Below the pieces are notes generated by a model. That model was not told the origin of the DNA. It ran no database searches and saw only the letters and a list, made by a program, of their open reading frames with translations. Source: Scyliorhinus canicula (lineage: Eukaryota). Taken from it: a DNA stretch of 64,000 nucleotides. Positions 526-57,957 of the stretch are shown one piece after another. The DNA is taken from positions 1,922,001 through 1,986,000 of the forward strand of contig NC_052166.1 in the NCBI RefSeq assembly GCF_902713615.1. Direction: 5' to 3'. Position 1 is the first letter of the stretch. Each line of letters opens with the position of its first letter. The translations under genes were made by a program, and so were the position numbers.

Positions 526-1715
526 TGAACGATCTTAGGATTTGAAGTTATTCAATTCAGGGTTACCGGTCGTTCTTGTACATTGCTGAAACTCAGTAGA
601 AATTCAAGTTAAAAACTTGTCAGGTGCAAATAAGAATTGTTTATTTGGAGTTCATTGGTTACAACTTGAAAATAATTTAAAAGGCTTTTTGTAGACAATT
701 TGATTTTTTCAAAGAATCACAGGAATTATCTTCTGAGACAACAGCTTGAACACAACTTTAAAAGTCAATGTCTGAAGTCAAAGTCTGAAAATGAAATATG
801 AATACAGAACTTTTTTCTAACTCTCTTCCTTCCTATCCTTTTCTGTCTACCTTCCTATCCTCTCTCAACTCTTTCTTTCTATCTCTCTGAACTCTTTCTT
901 TCTATCTCTCTGAACTCTTTCTTTCTATCTCTCAACTCTTTCTTTCTATCTCTCAAAATGGTGGCCAAATCGTCCATGGATATACTAATTCCTATCTGTC
1001 TTAAACGATCCGATCACATCCCAATATCGTCCTAATTGGTTTGAGTTAGACTCAAACACATTTGATTTGATAGAAAGCTGTCCATCTTCACTATGTAACA
1101 TTACTTCCAATTGTTGCCTGCTTGCTTATTTTTGCATGTTAAGAATGCGATATTGTGCTTTATCAAAACCAGCAAAAACTGGTCTAATGCTGACCTACCT
1201 ATTGCCACAATAGAGACCTCATGCTGACCTCACTACTGCACAATGGAGACCTTATGTTATCTCGTCATGTCACGCTGGGCATAACTCCGAAAATATAATT
1301 CTAACTGTCTATTTCAATTCAGTCTTTTATAAAATCGTTATAATGAGAATGTTGGAATCAAATATATATATTATATTTGATTCGATGTTTTAATTGTCCA
1401 TTTATTAAAAATAAGGCAACACAGTTTCAAGATATGTTTTAGCTTGTATAACTCATGGGATATGATTCACCTAATCTCGAGCGGTGTGAGAACCGTAGAA
1501 TCCTTCATTCCTACCCGTCGTTGCCATGGATTCAGCCCTTGTCCTTGGAGAAATGTAATGACCTTATCAGACTTCTGTGTTACTTTCAAAATCATGACCA
1601 TGAGATTTTGCAAAATATATGTTCTCTTTAATTTTAAAACTGGGAATTAATATTTATGCTTTAAGCAGCTATCTTTTTACCTATATTAAGTGTATTAGAA
1701 ATACCTGGCTCTACA
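526..1715 (-). repeat. ERV 3' LTR (~1190 bp)
   Basis: Direct repeat of 12652-13944; begins tgaacgatcttagg and ends ctctaca. Confidence 0.95.
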
Positions 1716-2065
1716 GTTGGCCCTTTGATAAATCGAAAGATCAAGTGAGATATATCAGAATAAGATAAAAGACATCATTACAGCGATAGGATAGGTAAAA
1801 GCGCAAAGAATACTCATTCATATTGTCATTGCAGATTTAAACAATAGAATGGACACTTAGCATTGCAACAACTATTTCAACAATAATCATTAAAATTCTT
1901 AAAGAATCATTATTACAAAATAACAATTAATAAATTAGTCAAATTTGATATTACAGATTCAGTATTAATAGATTATACAATAATTGATAATATTACGGTT
2001 AACATTTCAACAAAAGTATTTCACCTCAAATTCATCAATTGGGTGTGCAGTAGGGTTAGTGTGAA

Positions 2066-3361
2066 TCATTCTGACAGTTGGGTCCCCCTGTGTTTAGCGA
2101 ATAGTTCTTTGATGCACGTAGCACATTGGTATGTTATATAAATGATGAATCCAGCTACATAGGAGAATAGGATTATTCTCATTATGGACATTCCAGTGTG
2201 TCCAAATCACCCGCAATTTCTATCCCAGAGAGAGAAAACTGGGGTGGATCAAGTTTTTGATTTCTTTTTGGATATGTAATACCAAATCTTTAACTTCTTC
2301 AGAGTTATCGGGAATAAAAGTGCAACATTCTGCACCAATCAGGGCGCACGTGCCACCTTTTTCGGCTGGCACATAGTCGAGTGCCATTCGATTTTGTAAT
2401 ACCACGGTCAAATTGCTCGCATTTCGTCAGAGATTTTATCTAGGGCAGGTGACGGTGTAATCAGCTACATTTTGTACAATGGTTGTTATTTTATTCAACT
2501 TATTCTCCATCCTTCCCAATAGAAAGGAATGATTTTAGCATAAATGGCATCTCTAAAGGTGATGGAACGTTTTTTTCTTTGAACAGTCATTTCTGAAATA
2601 TGCAGGAGATTAGTCACATGATGAATGGCAGGTACCATGTACCCTAAATAGCAAGATCCTGACCAGGATCTTGGGAGCCAGGGATATGCTTTATCATCAC
2701 AAATAAAATAAGTTCCATTATAAGCAGAATATGAGTAAATATATTCTAAGAGCCATTGGTCTTCGAATGTTTTATTATTTGAGGTTAGGTATGCCTGTTA
2801 TCCTTGAGGACCGCATAACTCTTTCTAAGCGCTCGTTTGTGCATTTAAAGCTGTGTTAACATCTACATAGTTAGTACAATTACTATTACCCATTGGTATC
2901 CCTTTAGGGTCCTTACTGATGAGGTAAATAGATCCTTTTTGTTTAATATTAGTTGGGAGGTTAAGATGTTGAGGATTTTTGTCAGGGTTAAATTGAAGTT
3001 GGTGCCATCCTGAAAAGGTGTTTAGTAGATAGCCTGCAGATTTCCATAAGTTAATAGATTTTCGGATGTCAACCTGGTACCTTCCTTTTCCACATGAATA
3101 TGCTCCAGAACGGGTCACCACAGAGCAAGGGATGCTTTGATAGATGTACCATTCTGCTGTTTCTGAAGCATTAAAGGGAATAGTTAGAAAGGGAATACCC
3201 TCCCCTGAGTTAGTAGGGGTTGCAATGCATACCCAACAATTAGAAATGTTAAAGTTTTCAGCATAAATCTTAGATGTGTAAAGGAATGTGTTTTTATTCA
3301 TTTCTGATAAAACATTCACAAAGTCAATCAAATAACTGAAAATTAAAATTGCGGCAAACAT
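2066..3361 (-). pseudogene. env: Gamma-type envelope (SU+TM), frameshifted, ~430 aa
   Basis: Signal peptide MFAAILIFSYL; SU CWVC (CxxC); AYPWLPRSWSGSCYLG; furin site RKKR/S (~2566-2578); ISD LQNRMALD; CX6CC (CALIGAECC); TM helix IILFSYVAGFIIYITY; stop at 2066-2068. Confidence 0.9.
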
Positions 3362-3362
3362 T

Positions 3363-4255
3363 TTACTTGTACGCACGCTTCACGTGCGATGCGTGAATCC
3401 AAATTTTCTTTCCTTTTAACTTTACATCGGATTGGGCGGTGAGAAGGATTACGAGAGGACCTTCCCACCGATCCCAAAGGTTCCTTTTGCAGCTTTTTGA
3501 CGTACACTTCTTCACCGGGCACCAGGTCGTGCCCACCTTCCGGAGGATCGCCCCACACAGCGAACACCTGTTGAGAAGCAGAGCTAACAGCATTTGTTAG
3601 ATTTGGCAGTAAGACAGCAAAGCATCACTCATTAAATGACAGTCTGCTTTCCGCAAGTCAATAGTTCCTGGCAGAGACATTGGTCTGCCTGTGATGATTT
3701 CAAAAGGACTCAGGCCTGTTGTTCTGTTTGGTGTTGCTCTATTACTGCATAATACTATTGGCAAAGCGTGGACCCAATTCATGCCTTCCTGGCTGTATTT
3801 AGACAGTCTTTCTTTCAAAGTTCGATTCAAACGTTCCACTTGTCCTGATGATTGTGGATGATAAGGACAGTGTAAATTCCAGTTAATGTTTAGTAGTTTA
3901 CAGACTTCCCTACAAACAGCTCCTATAAAGTGGGTTCCATTGTCTGAGTCAATGCTAGCTGGTACCCCCCTTCTGGGAATAAAGTCTTTGCATAGCACTT
4001 TGTCTGTATGGGCAGCTGTCCCTCTTCTAGCTGGAGCAGCTTCCACCCATCTGGAGAATTTATCCACTATTACAAGGATGTCATTGTACTGTTGACATTA
4101 GGAAGAGTGATGTAATCTACTTGTAAGTCCTGGAATGGACCAGCATGAGCAGGAGCTCTTAATTGAGGCATTGATGTTATAGGACCCAAGTTATTCTTTT
4201 GACAGGTTACACATCGGTTGCTACCAATTGTGCATGTTTTTGAATCCTTTACCAC
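3363..4255 (-). pseudogene. pol: Retroviral integrase (frameshifted)
   Basis: CVTCQKNN zinc finger, DLQVDYI, DKFSRWVEA, SIDSDNGTHF, PQSSGQVERLN, C-terminal WEGP...WIHASHVK. Confidence 0.92.
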
Positions 4256-4279
4256 ACCAACTTCTATGGAATCAATCCA

Positions 4280-5247
4280 TCATTTGTTGAGGTGATATTG
4301 TCCCCAGGAAGGAATTTGTTGAGCTAAGAAGGGCATTAGTGATTGTGGTGCAACTGGTTTACAAGTTTGAACTGCTCTCCAAATTTCATCATCATACGGT
4401 TGAATACCTGATTCTAACCATGTCCATTTTTCTTCCTTTGTACAATCATTCTGCATTTCACGTAAATCATGTAATAAGGTGGTTACTCCCAATTTGTAAA
4501 TGTGACTGGATTCCTGATGCCACTGAGAGGCACAAAGGGAGGCAGCTTCCCTTGCTGCTTGGTCCGCAAGAGCATTTCCTCTTGCTTCCATAGTGTCCTC
4601 ATGAGTATGGGCTTTACATTTTAGAACTGATACTTCTTTGGGCAAGGTCATAGCTTCTAGAAGATCTTGTACTTCCTTTCCATTTCGGATAGGTGTACCT
4701 GCTGTTGTGAGAAATCCTCTTTTCTCCACAGATGGCCAAAATCATGTGCTATTCCAAAACCATATCTGGAGTCAGTATAGATGTTAGCAGTTTTATCTCT
4801 TGCCACATGACATGCTTCTGTTAGTGCCTTTAATTCGGCCTGCTGAGCTGATGTAGCTGGGGGCAAACTTCCTTCAGCTAATACTTCGTATGGGCTTCTG
4901 ACTGCCCACCCAGCTTTCCTGATACCCTTGTCAATAAAAGAGGAACCATCAGTGAATAAGATTAAATCTGGGTTCTGTAATGTAGTGGCTCTTCTTCTAC
5001 TAAGCGTACTTCTTCCATTTCCTCTATTATTTTCACACAGTCATACCCTTCTCTCTCTCCCTCCTCTTGTTCCTCGGGAAGCGGGAGCAAAGATGATGGG
5101 TTTACAGGACTGGCTTTGTGAAAATATAGGTTGGGAGCTTCCAAAACTGCTGTCCATCTAGTCCATCTAGCTGATGTAACTGTGACACTCTGTTCATAGA
5201 TAGTAGAGAATGGACTGAATGTGGACATTTAATGATTAACTTTTGGT
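4280..5247 (-). pseudogene. pol: RT connection/tether and RNase H (frameshifted)
   Basis: SAQQAELKAL, NIYTDSRY, ERGFLT, KCKAHT, RGNALADQAA. Confidence 0.9.
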
Positions 5248-5248
5248 C

Positions 5249-6703
5249 TAGAACATAGAACATTACAGCGCAGTATGGGCCCTTCGGCCCTCGATGTTGC
5301 GCCGACCTGTGAAACCATCTGAAGCCTATCTGACCTACACTATTCCATTTCATCCATATGTCTATCCAGTGACCACTTAAATGCCCTTAAAGTTGGCGCG
5401 TCTACTACTGTTACAGGCAGGACGTTCCACACCCCTACTACTCTCTGAGTAAAGAAACTGCCTCTGACATCTGTCCTATATCTACCACCCCTCAATTTAA
5501 AGCTATGTCCCCTCGTGTTGGTCATCACCATCCGAGGAAAGAGACTCTCACTGTCCACCCTATCTAACCCTCTGACTATCTTATATGTCTCTATTAAGTC
5601 ACCTCTCAGTCTTCTCCTCTCTAACGAAAACAACTTCAAGACCCTGAGCCTTTCCTCATAAGACCTTCCCTCCATACCAGGCAACATCCTAGTAAATCTC
5701 CTCTGAACTCTTTCCAAAGCTTCCACATCCTTCCTATAATGTGATGAACAGAACTGCACGCGGTACTCCAGGAGCGGCCGCACCAGAGTTATGTACAGCT
5801 GCAGCATGACCTTGTGGTTCCAAAACTCAATCCCCCTACTGATAAAGGCTAGCACACCATATGCCTTCTTAACAGCCCTATTAACCTGGGTGGCAACTTT
5901 CAGGGATTTATGTACCTGGATGCCGAGATCGCTCTGTTCATCTACACTACCAAGAATCTTGCCATTAGCCCAGTACTCTGCATTCCTGTTACTCCTTCCA
6001 AAGTGAACCACCTCACACTTTTCCGCATTAAACTCCATCTGCCACCTCTCAGCCCAGCTCTGCAGCTTATCTATGTCCCTCTGTATCCTATAACATCCTT
6101 CAGCACTATCCACAACTCCACCGACCTTCGTGTCATCTGCAAATTTACTAACCCATCCTTCTACACCCTCTTCCAGGTCATTTATAAAAATGACAAACAG
6201 CAGTGGCCCCAAAAACAGATCCTTGCGGTACACCACTAGTAACTGAACTCCAGGATGAACATTTGCCATCAACCACCACCCTCTGTCTTCTTTCAGCTAG
6301 CCATTACTGATCCAACCGCTAAATCACCTTCAATCCCATACTTCCTTATTTTCTGCAATAGCCTACCGTGGGGAACCTTATCAAACGCCTTACTGAAATC
6401 CATATACACCACATCAACTGCTTTACCCTCATCCACCTCTTTGGTCACCTTCTCAAAAACTCAATAAGGTTTGTGAGGCATGACCTACCCTTCACAAAAC
6501 CGTGTTGACTATCGCTAATCAACTTGTTCTTTTCAAGATGATTATAAACCCTATCTCTTATAACCTTTTCCAACGTTTTACCCACAACTGAAGTAAGGCT
6601 CACAGGTCTATAATTACCAGGGTTGTCTCTACTCCCCTTCTTGAACAAGGGGACAACATTTGCTATCCTCCAGTCTTCCGGCACTATTCCTGTCGACAAA
6701 GAC
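5249..6703 (-). mobile_element. 5'-truncated CR1 LINE inserted in ERV pol
   Basis: RT ORF 5340-6272 with SKFADDTK; 3' tail (GTTCTAT)n; same subfamily as the CR1 at 29679-39488. Confidence 0.92.
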
Positions 6704-8050
6704 CAGATTACCATTACAGCTCGACATGTAGCTTCATGGCTCGTAAACAACTGCCAAAGGCCAGTGCCACATTGTCAAGTTTAAGAGAATAGTACCAACT
6801 TGTCTTAACTGATCACCATGTCTTGAGCTAGTACTGCAGTCATGTAACCATCTCTTTCATGAACAACATGGTAAAAGGTTTTCCGTTGTTTGGAATACCT
6901 AAGGCTGGCGCTGAACACAGGACCTTTTTCAAATTCAGAATGATTGTTTCTGTTCAGAATTGAGTTTAATTTCATAGAATTTACAGTGCAGAAGGAGGCC
7001 ATTCAGCCCATCGAGTCCACCGGCTCTTGGAAAGAGGACCCTACCCAAGGTCAACAACTCCACCCTATCCCCATAACCCAGTAACCCCATAACCCAGTAA
7101 CCCACACCCAACACTAAGGGCAATTTTGGACACTAAGGGCAATTTTTCATTGTCCAATCCACCTAACCTGCACATCTTTGGACTGTGGGTGGAAACCGGA
7201 GCACCCGGAGGAAACCCACGCACACACGGGGAGGATGTGCAGACTCCGCACAGACAGTGACCAAGCCGGAATCGAACCTGGGACCCTGGAGCTGTAAAGC
7301 GATTGTGCTATCCACAATGCTACCGTGATCTCTTGATTTTCTGTTTCTTTTAAAAGATCATTCAATGGCTGGCATAACTGAGTATAAGAATCAATCCAAT
7401 TTCTGTTAAAATTAGAGTCCCAAGAAAGATCTGACTTCCTGTACAGTTGAGGGTTCTTTAGCTGCTTTGAGTAAGTTCCCTTTTGCCTTTGGAAATTTTC
7501 TGTCCCGAGTAAACAACTTCTTCCTGGGTAATTTGTGCTTTGGCAAAGCTAGCTTTGTGCCATTAGTACTGAGGTGGTTCAAGACCACCCGTAAGTCCTT
7601 TTCATGGTCATCTTTATTGATGGAGGCTAACAGAACATCATCTACATACTGAATACTGGTTGAAGGCAGATCAGGCAGTTGCCTGATGTGATTCTGCAGA
7701 GCCATGTGGTAAACAGCTGGGCTATTGTGAAAACCTTGCGGTAGTCTATTCCATGTGTACTGTTGCTGATTAACTGTAAAAGCAAACCATGGTTGTACTT
7801 GTTTAGCTAATGGTACTGACCAGAAGCCATTTGCCATATCAATGACTGAAAAACCATTGAAGGTCAGGGGTTAAAGAGTTAAAAATTGTAGACGGATCTG
7901 CCATTAAAGGAGCTTTTCTGACAATTAATTGATTTGCCTTTCTGTAGTCAATAGTAAGGCGCCATGTACCATTAGCCTTTTTCACAGGCCATACAGGGCT
8001 GTTGATGAACTGTGAATACGCACTAAATATCCCTTTCTTCAAGTTGTTTA
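6704..8050 (-). pseudogene. pol: Retroviral reverse transcriptase (frameshifted, interrupted by a SINE)
   Basis: NSPVWPVKK, WRLTIDYRK, VIDMANGFWSVP, LPQGFHNSP, QYVDD, RSFLGL, YYSLKLDNVA...CLRA. Confidence 0.93.
6972..7328 (-). mobile_element. HE1/V-SINE-like tRNA-derived SINE in ERV pol
   Basis: tRNA-like head with B box GGTTCGATTCC, V-domain core GTGCGTGGGTTTCCTCCGGGTGCTCCGG, CR1-like tail. Confidence 0.9.
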
Positions 8051-8141
8051 TTATAGGTAGAATACCTTGAATTGACGTTTGCTAATGGGTATTGTTTGGT
8101 ACAAGGTGGAGCTGATCCCATGAAAGTAACTGGTTCCATTT

Positions 8142-8662
8142 TCAAAAGACCACAATCATTTTTGTCAATTGCCCATATTGGATGATGTTGTATTTCATCT
8201 TTTTTATGTGTCTAATGGACCAGGTAATTTTCCCATTATTGAAGTTGAGTGAAGAATTTAGTTGTGATAAGATGTCCATACCTAGAAGTGCTTGTGTTAC
8301 CAGACCTACCCATATTGACGCTATCAGTTGATGTGGTCCAAATTCTAAGAGCAGTGGTTTAGGTCTTCCGAAGAGGGGCAGAGTCTCCTCCTGCAGAAAA
8401 AGCTTCAATTTTCTCTGGTTAGGGGAAAGAAAGCAGCATTCTGTTCAGTAACACAGGTATGTTCAGCTCCAGTATCAAATAAAAAATCGATATGAATACC
8501 TCCCACTCTTAATGAAATATATAATCCATAATTTTTCTGCTGCAAAAGTGCATGTAGAGAGAAATGGAGAGAATCATCAAGAGTGGGGTCTAGTAGTTTT
8601 TTTGAATGATCATACAGAGAACGTCTTTGAGCTGGAGGACAGCTGTTTAACATTTCATTCAT
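8142..8662 (-). pseudogene. pro: Retroviral aspartic protease
   Basis: FLFDTGAEHTCV active site, followed by a LLGMDILSQL-type motif. Confidence 0.88.
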
Positions 8663-8687
8663 AGCATTGTTATCATCGTGTAGATTC

Positions 8688-8841
8688 CTACGTGGGTACG
8701 GTTCGTCCTCACGGGGTAAGATTCCTCCCTACATGGGTAAGATTCTGCCCTATGTGGGTAAGGTTCCTCCCTACATGGGTACGATTCTTCCCTACGTGGG
8801 TAAGGTTCCTCCCTACATGGATAAGGCTCCTCCCTACATGG
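8688..8841 (-). repeat. 21-bp coding tandem repeat (~7 copies, CREE(P/S)YP) at the Gag C-terminus
   Basis: gggtaag-type unit recurs at 8714, 8735, 8756, 8777, 8798 and 8819. Confidence 0.9.
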
Positions 8842-10063
8842 AAATGGCTGGGAGGTTTTAGAATCCCTGTACGTAAATCTGGGTCTGTCTTGTTGGAACG
8901 TAACCCTAGGTGCATCTTGTTTGTGCGCACTACGTGGTTGACCATGAGGTGGAAATGTATTGTAGTGAACATTGTCTACTTCATTATCATCTCTCGAATC
9001 CATCCGTGGTTTAAGATAGCATTTCGCCATCCAGTGTCCTATTTTATTGCAGAAAAGATATTGTGGTATTTTTTCCTTACGTGATTTTAATGGAGCCAGG
9101 GTACATGTTTGCCCTGAATCTTGTGGTGGTGTTTTAGTCACTGCTGATGAGCTTGTCTGATTGTGCGAACCACAATCTATCTGAATGCACCAGTCAACTA
9201 TGTCTCGGTATGTGCCAATTTTGGCCCAAGATGGTAAAACCAAATTCAAGGCATCAGAAACTTCAGGTTTAACACCGGCTACAAAAACCGTTTTTAAAGT
9301 GCTTGCATCCCATGTGTCAGTTTCCTCTGCGAGTGTCATTCCCGAATATTCATCCAAGTCTGTAAAAATCTTTCCTCAATATCCTGAATATCTTCATTAC
9401 TTTTTGAATGCAAGATGTGATCTTAGACCAATCGGTCCTCGGGGGGGCGAAATGTTAATAGCCAATCCCTGATTGCTAGCCAACCATCTTCTAAATTTTG
9501 CAAATCGTCTTCAAGGGCAAATTCCACCTCAGTTCTAAGGGTGAAATTACACGAGTACCTAGCATGATAGTCAGAACTTGTACTCCATCAAATGGGTGGA
9601 GACTGTAAATGGATTTTAATCTGTGAATTCCATCCCATGTGGACATACCACCCTTTTTAGGGTGTGGAAGATTTTGGACCATTCGTCAATTTTTGCAGGC
9701 TCTGCTGGTTCATGAGTCCATTGATGATCAAATATGTTTCTAGTGATAGTTTCACCTTCTTCCTCTTTTTTGCTTCCAACTCTAACCCGTTTGCGTTTTA
9801 AAAGGGGCTAGTTGAATTAATTTAGTATTACGCTTTGTAGGAACACTATCTTCGTCTGATTCATTTGGCAGAGGAATTAATTTATTCTTGACACTTGATC
9901 TCGGCTGTGCATTTGCCGATTGTGCCACTAGGTGGGGTGCGTGGGCTTCTTGTTGAGTTTGTGTTACTTCAGCTGCTGTTTGAATCTGAGCTGTGCTTTG
10001 CTTCAAACAGTCTTTTAGGATCGCAGTTTTCAGTGGCATTGTTTATATCTTTTTCTAAAACAT

Positions 10064-10720
10064 GGGCGAGATTCTCCGCAAATGCGGAGAGTCGTAAGGC
10101 TGCCTTGAAACTGGCCGTGGTTCACGGCAGCCTTCACGCCCGTTCCCGGGACCCGATTGTCCCCCCCCCAATCGGGGCTAGGAGCGGGACCCCATGACCC
10201 GCGGCTGGCGTCTGTATGACGTCAGCCGCGCATGCGCAGGTTGGAGCCGGCTCCAACCCGCGCATGCGCGGGTGATGTCATAACGCCATTGTTCCGCATT
10301 TCTCCACCATCCACAAGATATGGCGGCTTGATCTTGTCGGGCGGCAGAGGGGAAATAATGCGTCCCTTTTGGACGCAGGCCCGACGATCGGTGGCACCGA
10401 TTGTGGGCCTGTCCCCTCCCGAGCACAATGGTGGTGCTTCTGCCCCAAACGGGCCTCTGGATGCCCCAAACGGGCATCCAGCGCCCGTTTTTACAACGGC
10501 AGCGGTCAGGTGTGTTTGCTGCCGTGAAAAAATGGGCGTAAAGGCCCGGCTGCTCGGCCCATCGTCTGCGGAGAATCGCCGCTCGCCGTAAAAAACGGCA
10601 AGCGCCGATTCGTGACGTGGGTCGGGCGAGGGTGGGGGAGAATAGCGGGAGGGCGTAAAAATGTCGGGAGACCCTCCCGCTATTCTCCCAACCGGCATGG
10701 GCAGCGGAGAATCGCAGCCC
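10064..10720. mobile_element. GC-rich MITE-like element with imperfect TIRs inserted in gag
   Basis: Starts gggcgagattctccgc and ends gcggagaatcgcagccc; abrupt GC shift; flanks rejoin into a gag repeat unit; no clear TSD. Confidence 0.75.
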
Positions 10721-11960
10721 ATATCTTTCTTCGATTAACTTGCAATTTTCAAATTCAATTCGCTCAGTTTTTGATTGCAACCTTTGGTATCTTGACTCCA
10801 CTTCAAAAATTTGATTTTGTAATTCTGCTATTTGAATAGATAACTTCTGGAGTTTAGAGGTTTTGTTTTGCAATTCTGTTCCCATTTTGTCATAATGTTC
10901 AAGTTTAGATTCTGCATCTTGCAATTCTCTTTCTAAAACACATTTTTGTTCGATTAACTTGCACTTTTCAAATTCAATTCGCTCAGATTTTGATTGCAAC
11001 TTTGGTATTTTGACCTCCACTTCAAAATTTGATTTTGTAATTCTGCTATTTGAGAAGATAACTGCTGGAGTTTAGAAATTTTGTTTTGCAATTCTGTTCC
11101 AATTTCGTCATAATGTTCAAGTTTTGCCTTTGCATCTGCAATTCTCTTCTAAAACACATTTTTCTTCAATTAACTTGGAATTTTCAAGTTCAGTTTGATC
11201 AGTTTTAATTGCAAACTGTTGGTATTTTGACTCTACTTCAAAAATTTGATTTGGAACTCTATTTGAAAAGATAACTGCTGGAGTTTAGAAGTTTTGTTTG
11301 CAATTCTGTTCTAAGTTCATCGTCCTGTTCAAATTTGGATTTTACATCTCGCAATTCTCTTTCTAAAACGCATTTTTCTTCATTAACTTGGAATTTTCAA
11401 GTTCAATTTGCTCAGTTTTTGATTGCAGCTGTTGGTATTTTGATTCCACTTCAAAAATTTGATTTTGGAATTCTGCTATTGAACAGATAACTGTTGGAAT
11501 TTGGCATCATCCTGTTCAAATCTGAATTTTGCATCTTGCAATTCTTTTCTAAAACACATCTTTCATCAATTAACTTGGAATTTCAAATTCAGTTCGCTCA
11601 GTCTTTAATTGCAACTGTTTGTATTCTAACTCCACTTCAGAAATTTGATTTTGGACTTCTGCTATTTGAACACATAACTGTTGGAGTTCAGCATCATCAT
11701 GTTCAAATTTGAATTTTGCATCTTGTAATTCTCTTTCTAAAACACATTTTCCTTTGATTAACTTGCAATTTTCATGTTCAATTTGCTCAGTTTTTAATTG
11801 CAACTGTTGGTATTTTAACTCCACTTCATAAATTTGATTTTGGACTTCTGCTATTTGAATAGGCAACTGCTGGAGTTCAGAGATTTTGTTTTCCAAATCA
11901 GTTCTAATTTCATCGTCAGATTCAAGTTTGGATTTTGCATCTTGCAATTCTTCAACAACT
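10721..11960 (-). repeat. ~6 tandem 186-219 bp units encoding 62-73 aa coiled-coil repeats in Gag
   Basis: Unit anchors near 10751, 10970, 11186, 11399, 11585 and 11774; peptide ELQDAxxKLE...IQIAELQNQIxEVE...LQxKTERIEFENCKLIE. Confidence 0.9.
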
Positions 11961-12633
11961 GCAATTAGTTGGTCTTTAGTGGACCTATACTCATGATTAG
12001 TTTTATTTTTAGTAATTATCTCTTGCTGTCTGCGTAATTGTCCAATAATTGCCAGGGACCATTTAACACGTTCTGCACTGTGCAATCGTGTGCATTTTCC
12101 CCATGCTCTTGATATTATCAAAGGACCACTGTCCTCTGGGGATATTATACTTTGATTCAATTTTTCTTGAGGTTTCACATAGGTCAAATTGTTTACGAAA
12201 TAAAGACCCAAAATCCCCCAACATATCTTCAACGGAAACATCTGGTATCCCAGATCCTCCTTTTATCGTCATAGGGAGTAATTTTCTGCCTTCTAAAGGG
12301 TCTAAATCTATACTTTCATCTGGATCAGCCATAAATTCAACCTTTCACTTAACTTTTTGTGTGTAGGCTGTGTTAGTCTCAACAACCGGCACCTGATTGA
12401 TTTAATACCGTCTATAAAATGTCCTTTTCAGGGGTCAAAGCACTGATTGATGCGACTTTAAGACTTTTAATGGGTGAAAGAGATATTTCTTACCCCAGTC
12501 TAGCCGTGGGTTCCGACTGTCTTCTGGGTCTCCTCCGATTATTCCCGAAGCTTCCGTCGTTGCCTGGTCCTCCTCCGATTTCTCACGAAGTTTTCCGAAC
12601 CTCTCCGAAGGTCGTATCAGAACTCCTCCCCCG

Positions 12634-12648
12634 CTGCCGACTACGCCA
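12634..12648 (-). promoter_or_regulatory. Primer-binding site, tRNA-Ser
   Basis: Minus strand TGGCGTAGTCGGCAG, 3 nt after the 5' LTR, complementary to the 3' end of vertebrate tRNA-Ser (…CTGCCGACTACG-CCA). Confidence 0.9.
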
Positions 12649-12651
12649 AGT

Positions 12652-13944
12652 TGAAGGATCTTAGGATTTGAAGTTAATTCAATTCAGGGTTACCGGTCGT
12701 TCTTGTACATTGCTGAAACTCAGTAGAAATTCAAGTTAAAAACTTGTCAGGTGCAAATAAGAATTGTTTTATTTGGAGTTCATTGGTTACAACTTGAAAA
12801 TCATTTAAAAGGCAGTTTGTAGACAATTTGATTTTTTTCAAAGAATCACAGGAATTATCTTCTGAGACAACAGCTTGAACACAACTTTAAAAGTCAAAGT
12901 CTGAAGTCAAAGTCTGAAATGAAATATGAATACAGAACTTTTTTCTAACTCTCTTCCTTTCCTTTCCTTTCCTTTTCTATCTAACCCTTCCTGTCTCTCT
13001 CAACTCTTTCTTTCTATCTCTCTCAACTCTTTCTTTCTATCTCTCTCAACTCTTTCTTTCTATCTCTCTCAACTCTTTCTTTCTATCTCTCTCAACTCTT
13101 TCTTTCTATCTCTCTCAACTCTTTCTTTCTATCTCTCTCAACTCTTTCTTTCTATCTCTCTCAACTCTTTCTTTCTATCTCTCAAATGGTGGCCAAATCG
13201 TCCATGGATATACTATTTCATATCTGTCTTAAGCGATCCGATCACACCCAATATAATCATAATTGGTTTGAGTTAAACGCAAACACATTTGATTTGATAG
13301 CAAGCTGTCCATCTTCACTATGTAACATTACTTCCAATTGTTGCCTGCTTGCTTATTTTTGCATGTTAAAGAATGCGATATTGTGCTTTATCAAAACCAG
13401 CAAAAACTGGTCTAATGCTGACCTACCTATTGCCACAATAGAGACCTCATGCTGACCTCACTACTGCAACAATGGAGACCTTATGTTATCTCGTCATGTC
13501 ACGCTGGGCATAACTCCGAAAATATAATTCTAACTGTCTATTTCAATTCAGTCTTTTATAAAATCGTTATAATGAGAATGTTGGAATCAAATATATATAT
13601 TATATTTGATTCGATGTTTTAATTGTCCATTTATTAAAAATAAGGCAACACAGTTCAAGATATGTTTTAGCTTGTATAACTCATGGGATATGATTCAACC
13701 TAATCTCGAGCGGTGTGAGAACCGTAGAATCCTTCATTCCTACCCGTCGTTGCCATGGATTCAGCCCTTGTCCTTGGAGAAATGTAATGACCTTATCAGA
13801 CTTCTGTGTTACTTTCAAAATCATGACCATGAGTTTTGCAAAATATATGTTCTCTTTAATTTTAAAACTGGGAATTAATATTTATGCTTTAAGCAGCTAT
13901 CTTTTTACCTATATTAAGTGTATTAGAAATACCTGGCTTCTACA
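12652..13944 (-). repeat. ERV 5' LTR (~1293 bp)
   Basis: Direct repeat of 526-1715; candidate TATA (TATAAAAG, minus, ~13553-13560) and AATAAA (minus, ~12768-12773). Confidence 0.95.
12994..13184. repeat. 23-bp VNTR inside the LTR (8 copies in the 5' LTR, ~4 in the 3' LTR)
   Basis: (ctctctcaactctttctttctat)n, with caactc at a 23-bp period from 13001 to 13162. Confidence 0.9.
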
Positions 13945-16686: not shown

Positions 16687-19330
16687 TTAGTGTGGTCCTC
16701 GGTGACTCCAGGAGCGTGCTGAAATACTCTTGATCCTCAGGCATGGGGAGGGGGAGGACTGATGGTCCCGGGGGTTGCTGTTGTGTGCGTCAGGGAAGGG
16801 GAGGGTGGCGCAGGGCCGGAGGGGTGTGTGTGTGGAACCTGCTGGTGCCAGGTCCTTGAGGGAGACAGTATCTTGGCAGCCGTCGGGGTACGCTACGTAG
16901 GCATACTGGGGGTTGGCGTGGAGTAATTGCACCCTTTCAACCAACGGGTCCGCCTTGTGGAGTCGTATGTGCTTACGGAGGAATACGGGTCCTGAAGCTG
17001 CAAGCCAAGTCGGGAGCGACACCCCGGAGGTGGACTTCCTGGGAAAGGTAAAGAGACGTTAATGGGGTGTGTCGTTAGTCGCAGTGCATAGGAGTGACCG
17101 AATGGAGTACAGTGCATCGGGGAGGACTTCCTGCTGGCGGGAGGCCGGGAGATTTCTGGACCATAGGGCCAGCTGGATGGCCATCCATACCGTCATGTTC
17201 TCCCTCTCCACCTGCCCAATTCCCAGGAGGTTATAGCTGGTCGCCCTGCTCGATACCCCTGCGGAGCAGGAACTGACGGAGCTCATTGCTCATGAGTAAG
17301 GATCCCCTGTCGCTGTGGATGTAGGTGGGTAAGCCGAACAGAGGGAAGATGGTGTTGAGGGCTTTGATGACGGTGGCAGACGTAATGTCGGGGCATGGGA
17401 TGGCGAAGGGGAACCTGGAGTACTCATTGACCACACTGAGGAAATACGTGTTACGGTCGGTGGAGGGGAGGGGCCCTTTGAAATCCACGCTGAGGCGTTC
17501 AAAGGGGCGGGAGGCCTTCACCAGGCACGCACGGCCCGGCTGGTAAAAGTGCGGTTTGCACTCCGCACAGACCTGGCAGTCTCTGGTGATTGCCCTGACT
17601 TCCTCGACGGAGTCGGGCAGATTGCGGGCCTTGGTGAAATAGTACACCCGTGTGACTCCCAGGTGACGAAGTTTGTCTTGCAGAGTCCGGAGTCTGTCCA
17701 CCTGTGCACTGGCACATGTACCTAGGGATGGGGCATCGGGGGGCTCGTTGAGCTTGCCGGGACGATACAAAATCTCGTAGTTGTAGGTGGAGAGCTTGAT
17801 CCTCCACCTCAAGATTTTATCATTTTTAATCTTGCCCCGCTGTGTGTTAAACATGAAGGCTACCGACCATTGGTCAGCGAGGAGAGTGAATCTCCTACCG
17901 GCCAGGTAATGCCTCCAATACTGCACAGTTTCAACGATGACTTGGGCCTCTTTTTCGACGAAGGAGTGCCGAGTTTCGGAGGCATGAAGGGTTCATGAAA
18001 AGAATGCCACGGGCCTGCCTGCCTGGTTGAGGGAGGAGGCTAAATCAACGTCTGATGTGTCGCTCTCAACTTGAAATGGTAACGTCTCGTTGACTGCATG
18101 CCTTGATGATGTCGGCCTTAATACGGGTTGAAGGCCTGGTGAGCCTCGGCCGTCAGGGGGAACAGAGTGGACTGAATGAGTGGGCGGGCCTTGTCCGCAT
18201 AATTTTGGACCCACTGGGCGTAGTAAGAAAAGAACCCCAGGCAATGTTTGAGGGCCTTGGGGCAGTGGGGGAGGGGGAATTCCATGAGGGGGTGCATGCG
18301 GTCAGGATCTCCGTTCTGGACCGCATAGCCGAGGGTGGCTAAGCGGTTCGTGCTGAACACTCACTTCTTGTTATAAGTTAGGTTGAGAAGAGTGGGGGTG
18401 TGGAGGAATTTGGCAAGGTTGGCATCATGGTCCTGCTCATCGTGGCCGGAGATGGTGACATTGTCTAGGTACAGGAAAGTGGCCCGCAGCCTGTACCGGT
18501 CGACCATTCGGTCCATCACCCGTTGGAAGACCGAGGCCCAATTTGGTGACGCCGAAGGGAACCCTAAGAAAATGGTAGCGGCGGCCATCTGCCTCAAAGG
18601 CAGTGTATGGGCGGTCCGTTTACGGATGGGGAGCTGGTGATAGGCGGATTTTAGGTCCACAGTTGAGAAGACCCGGTACTGTGCAATCTGATTGACCATA
18701 TCAGATATGCGTGGGAGGGGGTACGCGTCGAGCTGCGTGTACCGATTGATGGTCTGGCTGTAGTCCACGACCATTTTGTGTTTCTCCCCAGTTTTCACCA
18801 CTACCACTTGGGCTCTCCAGGGTCTGTTGCTGGCCTCGATGATGCCTTCCAGAAGCAGCCGCTGGACCTCGGACCTGATGAAGGTCCTGTCCTGGGCTCT
18901 GTACCGTCTGCTCCTGGTGGCGACGGGTTTGCAATCCGGGGTTAGGTTTGCAAATAGGGAGGTGGGTCGACCTTTAGGGTCGTGAGGCCGCACACAGTAA
19001 GGGGTGGTGGGGCCCGCCGAATTGCAATGTTAGGCTCTGCAGGTTGCACTGGAAGTCCAGGCAGAGTAGCAGGGCAGCTCAGAGGTTGGGGAAGACGTAG
19101 AGGCACAAGCCGCTGAATTCTATGCCCTGGACAGTGAGCATGACTATACAGTACCCCCGGATCACTACGGAGTGGGACCCAGAGGCCAGGGAGATTCTCT
19201 GGTTGGCGGGGTGTACCGTGAGGGAGCAGCGCCTTACCGTATCGGGGTGGATGAAGCTTTCTGTGCTCCCGGATTCCAGCAGAAGGAGATCTCGTGCCCA
19301 TCTATCTTCACACTTGTAGAGGCGGTGGCT
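16687..19330 (-). pseudogene. pol: Gypsy pol (PR-RT-RNaseH-IN), frameshifted
   Basis: VDLKSAYHQ, YLDNVTISG, FQVESDTS, WRHYLAGRRF, SVDFKGPLP, IHSDRG, GQVERE. Confidence 0.88.
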
Positions 19331-20401
19331 AGATTGTGCGGGCGAGACTGGTCAATCGTGACCGAGGTGAGGCGCGACTGGTCGTTGTTGGTGTCAGACG
19401 ATGGGGTGCTCGGGGGGCATGGGTCCTGGTACGATGGTGGCGCCCACGTGCCATGGGGGAGACAAGATGGCGGCGCCTGATGATCCTGAGGAGGACAAGA
19501 TCGCGGCGTCCAGGGGCCGCACGTGGTGGGGGTTGAACAAGATGGCAGAGCCCTTGGGCCGCACGTGGTCCGAGGAGGGGAAGATGGCGGCGCCCACTGG
19601 CCGTGCGTGGTCCAAGGAGGGGAAGATGGCGATGCCCAATGTCTGTACGCGGGGGGGGGGGTGTCGGAGCGATAGCAGCGACTGAGCGGGCCTGGCACAC
19701 CGCAGCAAAGTGCCCCTTCTTGCCACAGGCCTTGCAAAAAGCACTCCGGGCCGGGCAGCATTGGCGGGGGTGTTTTTGCTGCCCACAGAAGTAACATCTG
19801 GGGCCCCTGGGGTTGGCTGGCTGGCGCGTGGCACAGGCGTAGGATTGGTTGAGTGAGGTCCCCGGTGGGTCGGCCGTCTGCATTGGAGGGGTGGGCCACG
19901 CGGCCAGGTGTGTAGGCCTGGATATTGCGCGAGGCGACCGTCATTGATAGCGCCAGCTTTTTGGCTGCCGCGGATGTGATCTGACCCTACCCCCGTAACT
20001 AAAGCGTCTCGCATGAGTAGATTCGAGTGTTCCGTGACGGCCTGACAGTCACAGTCTCTGACCAGGGGAATTAGAGCATGCCAGAAATCTTCTATTGACT
20101 CACCAGGGAGTTAACTACGAGTGGAAAGGATGTGTCTGGCAAAGAGCGTGTTCGTCCGCTGGGCGTAGTTTTCTTTCAGTAGCGCCATGGCATCGTCGTA
20201 GGTCAGTGCATCCTGGATAAGCGGAAAAACGTTGGAGCTGAGCTGCGTGTAGAGGATCTGGATCTTCTGAGCTTCCGGAATTGGATCTGGTGCAGACCTA
20301 ATGTAGGCTTTGAAACAGGCTAGCCAATGTTCAAAGTCCTTTTTGGCTTTGCTTGATTGCGGTTCCAGCTGCAGGCGATCTGGCTTGATGAGGAGGTCCA
20401 T
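19331..20401 (-). pseudogene. gag: Gypsy gag
   Basis: MDLLIKPDRLQL...; CYFCGQQKHPRQCCPARSAFCKACGKKGHFAAVC. Confidence 0.85.
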
Positions 20402-29029: not shown

Positions 29030-31886
29030 CAGGTGAATGCTTGCTAAAGAATTGGCAGGGGCCAGTAATTCAGATTCTTAGATCATTGTGATCTTTTCTG
29101 GGACAGAAGTACCCGTTTTAAAATGGACAGGTTGCATCTGAACTGAAGGGGGATCAATATCCTGGAGGGCAGATTTGCTAGTTCTACAAAGGAGGGTTTA
29201 AACTAGATTGGCAGGTGGGTGGGATCCTCAGCAGCAGGGAAGCAAATGAGGACCTGAAAGGAGATGCCGTACTCAGCAATGGCAAGCTGAATAGACATGA
29301 TAGGCAGGAGCATGACAGGGAGCGGTGAAAACTTATTGGATTAAATTGCATCTATTTCAATGCAAGAAGGCTGACAGGTAAGGATGGTGAACCCGGGATG
29401 GATAGATACGTGGGACTGGGGTATTATAGCCAGAACTGAAACACGGCTAAGGGAGGGACAGGACTGGCAGCTTAATGTTCCAAAGTACATGTGCATTAGG
29501 CAAGACAGAGGTAGAGGAAAGAGAGGAGGGGGAGTTGCATTTTGATTCAGGGGAACGTCATGGTAGTAGTCACAGATAAAATAACTGAGGGATCATCCAG
29601 CGGGCTTTGTGAGTGAAACTAAGAATAAGAACGGGATGGTGACTTATTAGGGTTGTACTATCAGCCCCCAAACAGTCATAGAACATTACAGCGCAGTACG
29701 GGCCCTTCGGCCCTCGATGTTGCGCCGACCTGTGAAACCATCTGAAGCCTATCTGACCTACACTATTCCATTTTCATCCATATGTCTATCCAGTGACCAC
29801 TTAAATGCCCTTAAAGTTGGCGAGTCTACTACTGTTGCAGGCAGGGCACCACACCCCTACTACTCTCTGAGTAAAGAAACTGCCTCTGTCATCTGTCCTA
29901 TATCTACCACCCCTCAATTTAAAGCTATGTCGCCTCGTGTTGGTCATCACCATCCGAGGAAAGAGACTCTCACTGTCCACCCTATCTAACCCTCTAACTA
30001 TCTTATATGTCTCTATTAAGTCACCTCTCAGCCTTCTCCTCTCTAATGAAGACAACCTCAAGTCCCTGAGCCTTTCCTCATAAGACCTTCCCTCCATACC
30101 AGGCAACGTCCTAGTAAATCTCCTCTGAACCCTTTCCAAAGCTTCCACATCCTTCCTATAATGTGGTGACCAGAACTGCACGCAGTACTCCAGGAGCAGC
30201 CGCACCAGAGTTATGTACAGCTGCAGCATGACCTTGTGGCTCCGAAACTCAATCCCCCTACTGATAAAGGCTAGCACACCATATGCCTTCTTAACAGCCC
30301 TATTAACCTGGGTGGCAACTTTCAGGGATTTATGTACCTGGATGCCGAGATCTCTCTGTTCATCTACACTACCAAGAATCCAGTACTCTGCATTCCTGTT
30401 ACTCCTTCCAAAGTGAATCACCTCACTCTTTTCCTCATTAAACTCCATCTGCCACCTCTCAGCCCAGCTCTGCAGCTTATCTATGTCCCTCTGTATCCTA
30501 TAACATCCTTCAGCACTATCCACAACTCCACCGACCTTCGTGTCATCTGCAAATTTACTAACCCATCCTTCTACACCCTCTTCCAGGTCATTTATAAAAA
30601 TGACAAACAGCAGTGGCCCCAAAACAGATCCTTGCGGTACACCACTAGTAACTGAACTCCAGGATGAACATTTGCCATCAACCACCACCCTCTGTCTTCT
30701 TTCATCTAGCCAATTACTGATCCAAACCTCTAAATCACCTTCAATCCCATACTTCCTTATTTTCTGCAATAACCTACCGTGGGGAACCTTATCAAACGCC
30801 TTACTGAAATCCATATACACCACATCAACTACTTTACCCTCATCCACCTCTTTGGTCACCTTCTCAAAAAACTCAATAAGTTTTGTGAGGCATGACCTAC
30901 CCTTCACAAAACCGTGTTGACTATCGCTAATCAACTTGTTCTTTTCAAGATGATTATAAACCCTATCTCTTATAACCTTTTCCAACATTTTACCCACAAC
31001 CGAAGTAAGGCTCACAGGTCTATAATTGCCAGGGTTGTCTCTACTCCCCTTCTTGAACAAGGGGACAACATTTGCTATGCTCCAGTCTTCCGGCACTATT
31101 CCTGTCGACAAAGACGACATAAAGATCAAGGACAAAGGCTCTGCAATCTCCTCCCTGGCTTCCCAGAGAATCCTAGGATAAATCCCATCTGGCCCAGGGA
31201 CTTATCTATTTTTACACTTTCCAAAATTGCTAACACCTCCTCCTTGTGAACCTCAATTCCATCTAGCCTGGTCGACTGAACCTGAGTATTCTCCTCAACA
31301 ACATTGTCTTTCTCCAGTGTAAACACTGACGAAAAATATCCATTTAACACTTCCCCTATCTCCTCTGATTCAACACACAACTTTCCACTACTATCCTTGA
31401 TGGGCCCTAATCTTACTCTAGTCATTCTTTTGTTCCTGATATACCTATAGAAAGCCTTAGGGTTTTCCTTGATCCTATCTGCCAACGACTTTTCGTGTCC
31501 TCTCCTCGCTTTTCTTAACTCTCCCTTTAGGTCCTTCCTAGCTAACTTGTAACTCTCAAGTGCCCTAACTGAGCCTTCATGTCTCATCCTAACATAAGCC
31601 TTCTTCTTCCTCTTGACAAGTGCTTCAACTTCCTTAGTAAACCACGGTTCCCTTGCTCGACAACTTCCTCCCTGCCTGACAGGTACATACTTATCAAGGA
31701 CACGCAGTAGCTGTTCCTTGAAAAAGCTCCACATTTCGACTTCCGGTTGCGGCTATGACCAGCTAAGTCGCACATTTGGCAGCTCCTGCGACAAAGGTGT
31801 TTAAGGGCCGATTGGAGGGCCCCGACGGTACTGTAAAGACGAATCCCGGTGGGGGAAGGCTCCCTGAGGAGAGTGAGACCAACTTT

Positions 31887-32732
31887 ATGGTCGGTACTCG
31901 GAGAGGGGCGACAAAAAAAGCGGCAGCAGCTCCCCAAAAAAAGCGGGGGAAGAGGACCAAAATGGCGGCCGGTGGTGCACTAGAAGATTGGAGAAAATGG
32001 GCGGAGGAGCAGCAGGCCGCTCTCCTCCGGTGCTTTACGGAGCTGAAAGTGGAACTCTTAGAGTCCATGAACGCGACGACCACAAGGCTGATGGGGGCCC
32101 AGGCGACCCAAGAGGCATCGATAAGAGAGCTGCAGCAGGAGATGGCGGTGAGGGAGGAGGAAGCCACGGTCCTCGTGGGAAAGGTGGAGGTGCACGAGGC
32201 ACTCCACCTGAAATGGCAGAGCCGCTTTGAGGAGCTGGACACGCGAATGAGGCGGAAGAACTTGAGGATCCTGGGCCTAGCAGAAGGCCTGGAGGGGCCT
32301 GATCTCCCGAAATATGTAGCGGAGATGTTGAGCTCCCTGATGGGAGAGGGGGCCGGTCCATCGCCCCTGGAGCTGGAAGAAGCATATCGGGTCATGGCTA
32401 GGCGGCCTAGGGCAAACGAGCCCCCGAGGGCGGTGCTGGTGCGGTTCCAGCGTCTCTGCGATCGGGAGAAAGTGCTGAGGTGGGCCAAGAGGGAGAAAAG
32501 CAGCAAATGGGAGAATTCGACGGTGCGGATATATCAGGACTGGAGTGCGGAGGTGGCAAAGCGGCGGGCCCGGTTTAACCGAACGAAGGCGGTGCTGCAC
32601 GCAAAAAGGATCAAGTTTGGAATGCTGCAGCTAGCGCGCTTGTGGGTCACCTACAAGGACCAGCACCATTACTTTGAGACCCCAGAGGAGGCATGGACTT
32701 TTGTTCAGGAGGAAAAGCTGGACCTGAACTAG
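31887..32732 (+). CDS. L1 ORF1p (coiled coil, RRM-like and C-terminal domains), open frame
   Basis: Uninterrupted; RRKNLRILGLAEGLE, PRAVLVRF, RIYQDWS motifs. Confidence 0.85.
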   Translation: MVGTRRGATKKAAAAPQKKRGKRTKMAAGGALEDWRKWAEEQQAALLRCFTELKVELLESMNATTTRLMGAQATQEASIRELQQEMAVREEEATVLVGKVEVHEALHLKWQSRFEELDTRMRRKNLRILGLAEGLEGPDLPKYVAEMLSSLMGEGAGPSPLELEEAYRVMARRPRANEPPRAVLVRFQRLCDREKVLRWAKREKSSKWENSTVRIYQDWSAEVAKRRARFNRTKAVLHAKRIKFGMLQLARLWVTYKDQHHYFETPEEAWTFVQEEKLDLN

Positions 32733-33676
32733 AACTTGGGAACGCCGGCGGTCGAGGCCGCCCGAGTACCCTTGACTGATCAAGTGGCCCATGTCTTTCT
32801 TAGGCCAGGTCGGAACTTGGTTAAAGTTGATGGATCGTTTGGTTTCTTTGAAACTTGTGTTATGGGGGGTTTCTTTGTTCCTTTTTGTGTGTCTCTTCCC
32901 GTTGCCAACTTCCCTTAATTATTGTTGTTGTAGGGGTTTTTTTTTTACTGTTTTTTGATCTGTTCTTTAAGGGTTATGGTTACTGTTGGTTAAGTACGTT
33001 ATTATTGGGTAGTTATTTAGTTATTTAGTTATGCAGGCATAGTTATGTATTTATGTATTTATTTGCGATTTGTTATTTATATTGTTATATTGTTAAGTTG
33101 GGGAGGCGGGACGGGGGGGGAGCAAGTGGGTTATGCGTGTTTTCTTTTTCTCTTTTTTCTTCCTCTCGTTTTAAGGGGGCTTTGTTATCGGTGTGGATGG
33201 GGACGGGGGTGGAATTGAAGATGGTGGGGTAGGGTGTGGCCGGGCGAAAGCGCGGGCTCTCCCCTGTTTCCCGCGCGCGGGACGGAGGAAGGGGGAGGAG
33301 AGAAGAGTGGGGTGTGGCCAGCAATGGCGGCTTTTCCCGCGCTGAAGCGGAGTCAGAGAGGGATGGCAAGGGGGGGAGGGGGGGGGGGGAGGGAGGCCCC
33401 TCCCCCCCACATCGGGAGGAGTCGGAGTGTGGCAGGGGCAGCCGGGTCAGCGAAAACCAGCTGACTCTCGGGAGTACGATGGTGGATACACTGCGGCTAG
33501 GAGGGGTCCTAGCCAGGGGGGGGAGGGGGGGAAGGGGGGTTAGGGGGGGATACCGGGTTGCTGCTGGAAAGGCTGAGGACGGGAAGGGAAGAACGGGAGG
33601 AGAGAGGGGGGGGGCCATCGCCATGGGGAACGGGTCAGAAGGGGAGGGTCGACCCGGGGCGAACAGGGGACAGAAC

Positions 33677-36600: not shown

Positions 36601-37471
36601 CTGGTGGGGGATTCCAGAGCTGGCACAGGGCGGGCATCAGGCAACTGAGGGACATGTTCATAGAGGGGAGGTTTGCGAGCCTGGGAGAGCTGGAGGAGAA
36701 ATTTGAGCTCCCCCTGGGGAACACGTTTAGATACCTGCAGGTGAAGGCATTTGCCAGACGACAGGTGGAAGGATTCCCCTTGCTTCCCGATGGAGGGGCG
36801 AGTGATAGGGTGCTGTCAGGGGCCTGGGTCGGAGAAGGGAAGGTCTCGGACATCTACAAAATAATGCAGGAGGTGGAGGAGGTACCGATAGAGGAGCTGA
36901 AAGACAAGTGGGAAGCGGAGCTGGGAGAGCAGATAGAAGATGGGACATGGGCGGATGCCCTAGAGAGGGTCAATTCGTCGTCGTCGTGCGCAAGGTTGGG
37001 CCTCATCCAATTTAAGGTACTGCACAGAGCCCATATGACGGGGACTAGGATGAGTCGGTTCTTCGGGGGGGAGGACAGGTGTGTTAGGTGTTCGGGAAGC
37101 CCTGCGAACCATGTACATATGTTCTGGATGTGTCCGGCACTGGAAGAGTTCTGGGAGGGGGTGGCGGGGACGGTATCGAGAGTGGTGGGAACCAGGGTCA
37201 AACCAGGGTGGGGGCTAGCGATTTTTGGGGTTGGGGTGGAGCCAGGAGTACAGGAGGCAAGGGAGGCCGGAATATTGGCCTTTGCGTCCTTGGTAGCTCG
37301 GAGAAGGATCTTGATTCAGTGGAGGGACACAAGGCCACCAAGCGTTAACACCTGGTTAAACGACATGGCAAGCTTCATCCAATTGGAAAGAATCAAATTC
37401 GCCCTGAGAGGGTCGGTACAGGGTTCTTCCGGCGGTGGCAGCCCTTCCTTGACTTTTTGGATCAGAGATAG
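33677..37471 (+). pseudogene. L1 ORF2p (APE-RT-CCHC) with one in-frame stop and two G-run frameshifts
   Basis: ITWNVRGLN, MLQETH, GGDFN, SRIDFF, SDH, GTRQGCPLSP, YADD, CVRC-x8-HMFWMC; TAG at 34905-34907; frameshifts at ~34228-34236 and ~37420. Confidence 0.9.
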
Positions 37472-57366: not shown

Positions 57367-57957
57367 GTCAGTGTTTGTTGTTCATGCTACTTCTTGGAAT
57401 CAAACACTCTCAGCACAGATACAGCACGCGGTTAGATACAGAGTAAAGCTCCCTCTACACTGTCCCCATCAAACACTCCCAGGACAGATACAGCATGGGG
57501 TTAGATACAGAGTAAAGCTCCCTCTTCACTGTCCCCATCAAACACTCCCAGGACAGGTACAGCACAGGGTTAGATACAGAGTAAAGCTCCCTCTTCACTG
57601 TCCCCATCAAACACTCCCAGGACAGGTACAGCACAGGGTTAGATACAGAGTAAAGCTCCCTCTTCACTGTCCCCATCAAACACTCCCAGGACAGGTACAG
57701 CACAGGGTTAGATACAGAGTAAAGCTCCCTCTTCACTGTCCCCATCAAACACTCCCAGGACAGGTACAGCACGGGGTTAGATACAGAGTAAAGTTCCGTC
57801 TACACTGTCCCCATCAAACACTCCCAGGACAGGTACAGCACAGGGTTAGATACAGAGTAATGCTCCTCTACACTGTCCCCATCAAACACTCCCAGGACAG
57901 GTACAGCATGGGGTTACATACAGAGTAAATCTCCCTCTATACTGTCCCCATCAAACT

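Follow-up and report, generated by a model that had tools for sequence, protein, structure and literature searches.

Coiled coils are known from several retroviral Gag proteins that lack a myristylation signal. The Gags of snakehead retrovirus (SnRV) and chicken Ovex1 are non-myristylated and contain a coiled coil resembling a myosin rod, which in Ovex1 measures about 53 aa (residues 62-114; PMC2717909, where the SnRV features are given second-hand). Prototype foamy virus (PFV) Gag dimerises through the coiled coil of its non-myristylated N-terminal domain, a single helix of 40 residues and 58 Å in a protein whose head includes a beta-sheet (PMC3649970), and the lack of a Cys-His box in Gag is a criterion for Spumaretrovirinae and foamy-like fish ERVs (PMC5210030). 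Among non-LTR elements, the trimeric coil of LINE-1 ORF1p requires a stammer, is variable in length with 14 heptads in human, and shows heptad duplications between lineages, seen in mice (PMC5940361). For the small-spotted catshark itself, Song et al. (2023) listed ERV-Spuma.0-Sca with 293 elements and no recognised Gag domain (PMC10699275). In the literature searched, which covered few subscription papers, no Gag was described as carrying coiled-coil units in tandem.

We analysed a window of 64,000 nt from Scyliorhinus canicula, which contains a minus-strand ERV provirus spanning positions 13944 to 526 (Table 1). The provirus shows the layout of the Retroviridae (LTR-PBS-gag-pro/pol with RT, RNase H and IN-env-LTR) and is flanked by a 5-bp target duplication with one mismatch (GTTAC/GTTAA). 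Its two LTRs are 98.3% identical over 1187 aligned columns, and gag, pol and env are all disrupted. The host tRNA-Ser(AGA) gene matching the PBS was called by ARAGORN in one of three loci; around 30 matches to the tRNA-Ser 3'-end motif at a spacing of about 2 kb, located at G000:C6:207.69-207.82 Mb, probably represent a tandem tRNA gene array. Gag starts at the first ATG after the PBS (12332) with MADPDES and has no Gly2, just as the original prediction had read it, and it ends at a TAG at 8592-8590 instead of the proposed 8659. Measured against a natural open copy, the window gag is a pseudogene with 29 indel events, 23 of which are not multiples of 3. Because of this heavy indel load the proposed Gag of about 1000 aa is unreadable in the window copy and is visible in other copies only, which have open frames of 925-980 codons. 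The indels far exceed those of 28 other copies compared, and some of them may therefore be assembly errors. Unit 6 of the array is interrupted close to its end by a MITE-like insertion, which among loci L001-L069 is present solely in the two that represent the window copy. In L061, L062 and L053 the array or its border is interrupted as well, by ~0.7 kb, 3.2 kb (958-codon open frame) and ~0.3 kb, respectively.

Table 1. Features of the provirus in the window, in the order of transcription.
Feature	Position	Strand	Remarks
5' LTR (TG...CA)	12652..13944	-	contains a 23-bp tandem repeat
Primer binding site, tRNA-Ser type	12634..12648	-	complementarity of 15 nt to the 3' end of the host tRNA-Ser(AGA) gene with CCA added
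Gag N-terminal head (matrix position)	11951..12332	-	AF2 model: first ~35 aa disordered and acidic, three short helices; carries a basic patch and lacks Gly2
Six-unit coiled-coil array	10722..11950	-	frameshifted in the window copy, whereas natural copies elsewhere keep it open and in frame; units 1-3: 11950-11732 (219 bp), 11731-11545 (187 bp), 11544-11358 (187 bp); units 4-6: 11357-11145 (213 bp), 11144-10928 (217 bp), 10927-10720 (full unit 6 ~219 bp)
GC-rich MITE-like insertion, 657 bp	10065..10721	.	terminal inverted repeats, 2-bp AT duplication; interrupts the last part of unit 6
Remainder of unit 6, and low-complexity linker containing an acidic patch	9806..10064	-	
Capsid (CA)	9150..9805	-	starts at a conserved Pro (putative protease site), then basic stretch; major-homology-region motif
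Single CCHC zinc knuckle	9019..9060	-	first Cys altered in the window copy, intact in others
Gag-tail 21-bp (7-aa, EEPYPRR-type) tandem repeat	8687..8841	-	copy-to-copy number changes in 21-bp steps
Candidate -1 ribosomal frameshift signal	8502..8602	-	A AAA AAC heptamer before the gag stop, then 14-bp stem
pol (PR, RT with YVDD, RNase H, IN)	3378..8600	-	broken; interrupted at 5254-6703 (LINE-like fragment) and ~6970-7330 (SINE-like repeat)
env, gamma-type (signal peptide, CXXC, RKKR, ISD, CX6CC)	2000..3361	-	broken in the window copy
3' LTR	526..1715	-	pair to the 5' LTR

The tandem array predicted for the window gag is real, with six units of 187-219 bp, and it is found throughout the family, which does not bear out a copy-specific origin. 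Genome searches gave 247 array candidates and 289 head candidates; from either set 40 were scored and 30 retrieved, and without overlaps the retrieved copies amount to 47 distinct loci, 40 countable and 7 truncated or interrupted. Four units are present in 9 of the countable loci, four plus a partial unit or insertion in 2, five in 27 and six in 2, the commonest number being five and the maximum six in a sample whose proportions are not representative because the first search favoured long arrays. The whole-unit variation between copies that the original prediction had envisaged is thus found. Of the 29 loci that the first search gave besides the window copy, 5 have an unbroken frame through head, array, CA and knuckle (949-974 aa, five units), a four-unit copy has an open stretch of 925 codons, and six of the nine four-unit spans are divisible by 3. 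These natural open frames support the proposed virus-encoded rod, joined in frame to the N-terminal domain on one side and to CA on the other. All seven indels common to at least three copies are in frame and 57 of 81 rare indels are frameshifting, as counted by approximate binning in a set where some loci are near-identical. NCBI proteins with 97% identity to the CA region come from S. canicula, and relatives with 67-73% identity from S. torazame. In two raw RNA runs, 134 of 12.8 million and 33 of 15.0 million records fell on a family copy, on both strands; this is a low family-level signal and no evidence of Gag expression. None of the listed holders of the sequence was recorded as RNA. An RT search of viral contigs yielded 0 loci.

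In natural open Gags with five units, the units measure 73 (or 76), 63, 72, 73 and 73 aa and are rich in E, Q, L and K, in agreement with the heptad peptides originally described; long and short units differ by 10 aa, where 11 aa had been given. The hydrophobic period of the array is 3.46-3.47, a value reached by 0 of 1000 shuffles in either of two copies. The net charge of the rod lies between -18 and -25 in five-unit Gags, and one Pro is observed against about three expected, a depletion that is not significant. Short units of 63 aa correspond to nine clean heptads (9x7), whereas long units of 73 aa correspond to 10x7+3. By a simple heuristic fit, three of the four long units have their register break inside the 10-aa block by which they exceed the short unit (unit 1 returned a different break), and the short unit has no break. 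AF2 modelled residues 87-263 as a single unbroken helix; a two-copy complex prediction of residues 30-264 scored 0.17. The predicted rod would be about 290-430 aa long with four to six units, and about 350-380 residues or ~55 nm in five-unit copies. In one five-unit Gag the coiled-coil-like run extends over 379 aa, which at a coiled-coil rise of 0.15 nm per residue corresponds to ~56 nm, near the typical radius of a retrovirus. Either particles are of much greater size or have another layering, or the rod is bent, for which the stammers are plausible sites.

In the Gag head, residues 36-110 contain 16 K/R and 8 D/E, and the head is 31% identical to that of a fathead minnow Gag (pairwise E 1e-15). 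The Gly2 signal used as a criterion for gamma- and epsilonretroviruses is absent, the protein starting with MADP. Fold searches with the head, which bear on an orthoretroviral matrix fold, gave no clear match, the query including the long helix, which dominated the result lists, and a search of the ESM Atlas gave no usable match; neither outcome indicates a novel fold. The AF2 model of CA (pLDDT 87) has the two-domain CA fold with a major homology region and superimposes on the MLV CA-CTD (Z 11.0, rmsd 2.3, 86 aligned) as well as on the PEG10 CTD (Z 11.0). Walleye and toad retroviral Gags are matched too (WEHV2 Gag, E 2.5e-6), among them a toad ERV Gag of 873 aa, so long Gags exist elsewhere. 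By sequence, phmmer with CA against the PDB gave no significant match, and Pfam reported no Gag family above cutoff in two open Gags. The top viral fold match to CA, BFVD V5NX06, is labelled turtle herpesvirus ICP4c; this entry may contain a retroviral Gag-like domain or be mislabelled. The CA-initial Pro, residue 556 of the open Gag, is nearly invariant across alignment A2, and the knuckle of natural open copies reads CX2CX4HX4C, with profile matches to NC structures.

The 7-aa repeats of the Gag tail end in a YPx3L motif that resembles an ALIX-type late domain, an observation that concerns the window together with P0005 and P0011. In four teleost relatives an LYPx3L/M is located right after the coiled coil instead of in the tail, a pattern which suggests that the motif moved.

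Regarding the gag-pol junction, pol lies in the -1 frame relative to gag; in gamma- and epsilonretroviruses both share one frame with stop readthrough between them. The context of heptamer and stop was seen in the window and in seven of the eight other loci shown, the eighth showing another site. The stem has -30.4 kcal/mol (z -5.15, 0 of 200 shuffles), and expression by -1 frameshifting is likely. Several teleost relatives have Gags ending in Gly-Asn-stop; to judge from these protein sequences, their slippery site may be G GGA AAC. The env frame is open over at least 400 codons in 10 of 30 family loci, 8 of these encoding 453 aa; CXXC, furin site and CX6CC are present in all ten, and the ISD pattern in seven. 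Env is therefore a compact gamma-type protein with an immunosuppressive domain, different from the Env of Lokiretrovirus, whose mark is a resemblance to fusion proteins of negative-strand RNA viruses (PMC8922424). With env open in this share of loci the family probably spread as enveloped particles, and an env-less intracellular retrotransposon is not favoured. Identity in the RT core, read by eye on 68 columns of a published alignment rather than from a tree, was 50 with pike Eluc.ERVi.2, 38 with SnRV, 35 with WDSV and 27 with a foamy virus (PMC10435555, supplement file 6), placing RT nearer to SnRV than to the epsilonretrovirus WDSV by a thin margin. Among sequence matches of RT to solved structures, PFV RT was best with 58.7 bits vs 52.6 for the MLV type.

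In its non-myristylated Gag with an N-terminal coiled coil the catshark ERV resembles SnRV, whose group is the clade Huo or class III-like one, and Ovex1, but its tandem units cover ~290-430 aa where Ovex1 has one short coil. It further differs from both, SnRV Gag being compared by its description in PMC2717909, in the basic stretch after the rod, the -1 frameshift appearance, the tRNA-Ser PBS and the gamma-type Env. Foamy and foamy-like fish Gags have neither a major homology region nor a CCHC knuckle, whereas the catshark Gag has both, and its head is modelled as all-helical in contrast to that of PFV. LINE-1 ORF1p offers a functional analogy through its stammered coil of variable length, with no homology. 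ERV-Spuma.0-Sca is probably another family, set apart by its annotated lengths (LTR 866 bp, gag 753 codons, leader ~670 bp; PMC10699275) from an LTR of ~1.2-1.3 kb, a gag of 925-980 codons and a leader of 320 bp in the rod-Gag ERV. The architecture had been proposed as undescribed; this holds for the scale of the array, while a coil in a non-myristylated Gag is known from SnRV, Ovex1 and teleosts, SnRV and Ovex1 being the nearest precedent and one that the original prediction had overlooked. What is new is the size of a coil that has grown by duplication conserving the frame and apparently also the heptad register.

A search with CA recovered 93 relatives. The nearest teleost Gags (Pimephales, Esox, Alosa, Cirrhinus, Astyanax) share the Gly2-less head, a coil of ~35-80 aa, the acidic linker, CA and knuckle. 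Together with the pike Eluc.ERVi.2 these teleost ERV Gags are homologous in head, short coil, linker, CA (30-40% identity) and CCHC; they are only 427-540 aa long, and a small expansion of 15-aa repeats was found in Alosa alone. Distant relatives with Gly2 mostly have no coil at the position of the array by a rough score. Gly2 is missing in the short-coil teleost relatives, its loss therefore predates the array, and the original idea of the rod as a replacement for myristoyl targeting is rejected, since relatives without an array likewise lack Gly2. In the sister catshark S. torazame, P0006 has one unit, and other Gags carry a 73-aa duplication with a different breakpoint followed by micro-repeats of 17 and 11 aa. 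Counting S. canicula, S. torazame and Alosa, an ancestral short coil has expanded independently at least three times. In the S. torazame gene model P0009, a Gag with head, coil and knuckle but no CA is fused to EF-hand/VWF exons of FSTL1, probably as a gene-prediction chimera or because of an intronic provirus; CA is absent from P0008 as well.

Selection on the array is modest. Between open copies dN/dS is 0.36-0.59 in the array and 0.31-0.71 in CA, based on small counts and with two of the four comparisons being duplicates (L028, L029). Between units of one copy the pooled values of 0.72 and 0.91 are near neutral, single unit pairs reaching 1.49 on 4-6 synonymous changes. Hydrophobic columns vary about as often as others (0.59 vs 0.61). 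Units are 79-88% identical within a copy and 94-98% at the same position in two copies. In a tree built from 35 units, position in the array mostly decides the clustering, N-terminal units being poorly resolved. One copy carries two identical adjacent units, a recent exact duplication. The open frame of the array is by itself no proof of a role, because CA downstream needs an open frame anyway.

Taken together, we consider it probable that the array, a tandem-duplicated ancestral coil, serves on the matrix side of Gag as an oligomerising spacer that tolerates changes in length and is cut from CA at maturation. Gag in this fish lineage is normally built as head, short coiled coil, acidic linker, CA and zinc knuckle, and in the catshark family its coil segment was multiplied to four to six copies (189- and 219-bp units), probably by template slippage of RT, giving one continuous predicted helical rod of ~290-430 aa. 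The basic helical head may take the matrix role without myristate; to judge from the heptad pattern, the rod would form a parallel Gag-Gag coiled coil retaining the ancestral oligomerising role, and the stammer of each long unit, a register break of three residues, would loosen it. Protease would cut at the conserved CA-initial Pro and remove rod and head together, and selection would weigh frame and helix register far above exact sequence or length. Membrane binding, cleavage and oligomeric state of the rod Gag are inferred features only, which counts against this explanation. The size and radial layering of retroviral particles are generally attributed to the lengths of Gag domains. The rod could alternatively be an adaptive stalk, standing radially between the membrane-bound head and the CA lattice and creating a new geometry, in which the two are ~45-60 nm apart or the virion is much larger. 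The coil-like run of near-virion radius fits such a stalk, as do the presence of at least four units in every resolvable S. canicula copy and the open env frames, which make enveloped particles probable. Yet unit number varies (4-6, and 1-2 plus micro-repeats in S. torazame), open frames occur at two lengths, and stammers would allow a bent or tangential rod. That unit number varies, and that frames are open in copies with four as well as five units, favours the tolerant spacer over a length-setting stalk, and we regard as unlikely that enveloped catshark retrovirus particles are arranged around a predicted ~50-nm coiled-coil spoke from membrane to capsid lattice, changing in ~10-nm steps per unit. 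If true, no described retrovirus would share the virion geometry set by this spoke, which would also serve as a natural ruler of Gag length vs particle size.

Somewhat less unlikely than the stalk, though still a minority reading, is that a repeat-prone virus merely tolerates in-frame insertions and the extra units have no role, an explanation that overlaps with the tolerant spacer. Repeats also occur elsewhere in the provirus (21 bp and variable in the Gag tail, 23 bp in the LTR), units have diverged almost neutrally, and relatives expanded with unrelated unit sizes; against slippage alone, more than 1 kb was retained while the family amplified greatly (247 candidates for the array, 289 for the head), every resolvable copy having at least four units, both of two independent duplications comprise 73 aa, and dN/dS of the array between copies is below 1. 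By analogy with L1 ORF1p, where a stammer is needed and heptad duplications are reported in mice (PMC5940361), a fast-changing rod might hide CA or the head from restriction factors or bind host coiled-coil proteins. Expansion recurred in three lineages and some unit pairs exceed a dN/dS of 1 (up to 1.49, on the few synonymous changes mentioned), but the sample is underpowered for positive selection and, if the rod is cleaved at maturation, the incoming core would not be shielded; such a conflict role is improbable. Hardly credible is a captured host coiled-coil gene or a single-copy artefact, to which the NCBI names 'CFAP58-like' (P0007) and 'kinesin-related protein 3-like' (P0114) might point. 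Both of these misnamed proteins bear the Gag head and are Gag fragments of the catshark family, the array starts directly after the head in each locus retaining the head end (59/60 loci), and a two-unit query retrieved 8 array homologues among 1322 candidates, every one from the same ERV family, in a search that is weak for distant relatives. Host-gene capture is therefore rejected, and the original prediction's alternative of a host match did not materialise.

The catshark Gags form a natural length series of 1, 4, 5 and 6 units, in a family that rose to hundreds of copies and kept Env while bearing a rod of about a virion's radius. The series could probe the stretch limit of a matrix-to-capsid spacer and the role of the coil in non-myristylated fish Gags. 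The misannotation of Gags stored in NCBI as kinesin- or CFAP58-like host proteins is flagged here. Elsewhere in the window we noticed a separate broken Gypsy-like LTR element beyond the 5' LTR (16690-20110, minus strand; gag with knuckle, protease, RT, integrase), a near-complete LINE at 31767-37871 on the plus strand (ORF1 of 321 aa, ORF2 in pieces with the largest of 987 aa), and 69-bp satellite arrays in both orientations at 57399-59842.
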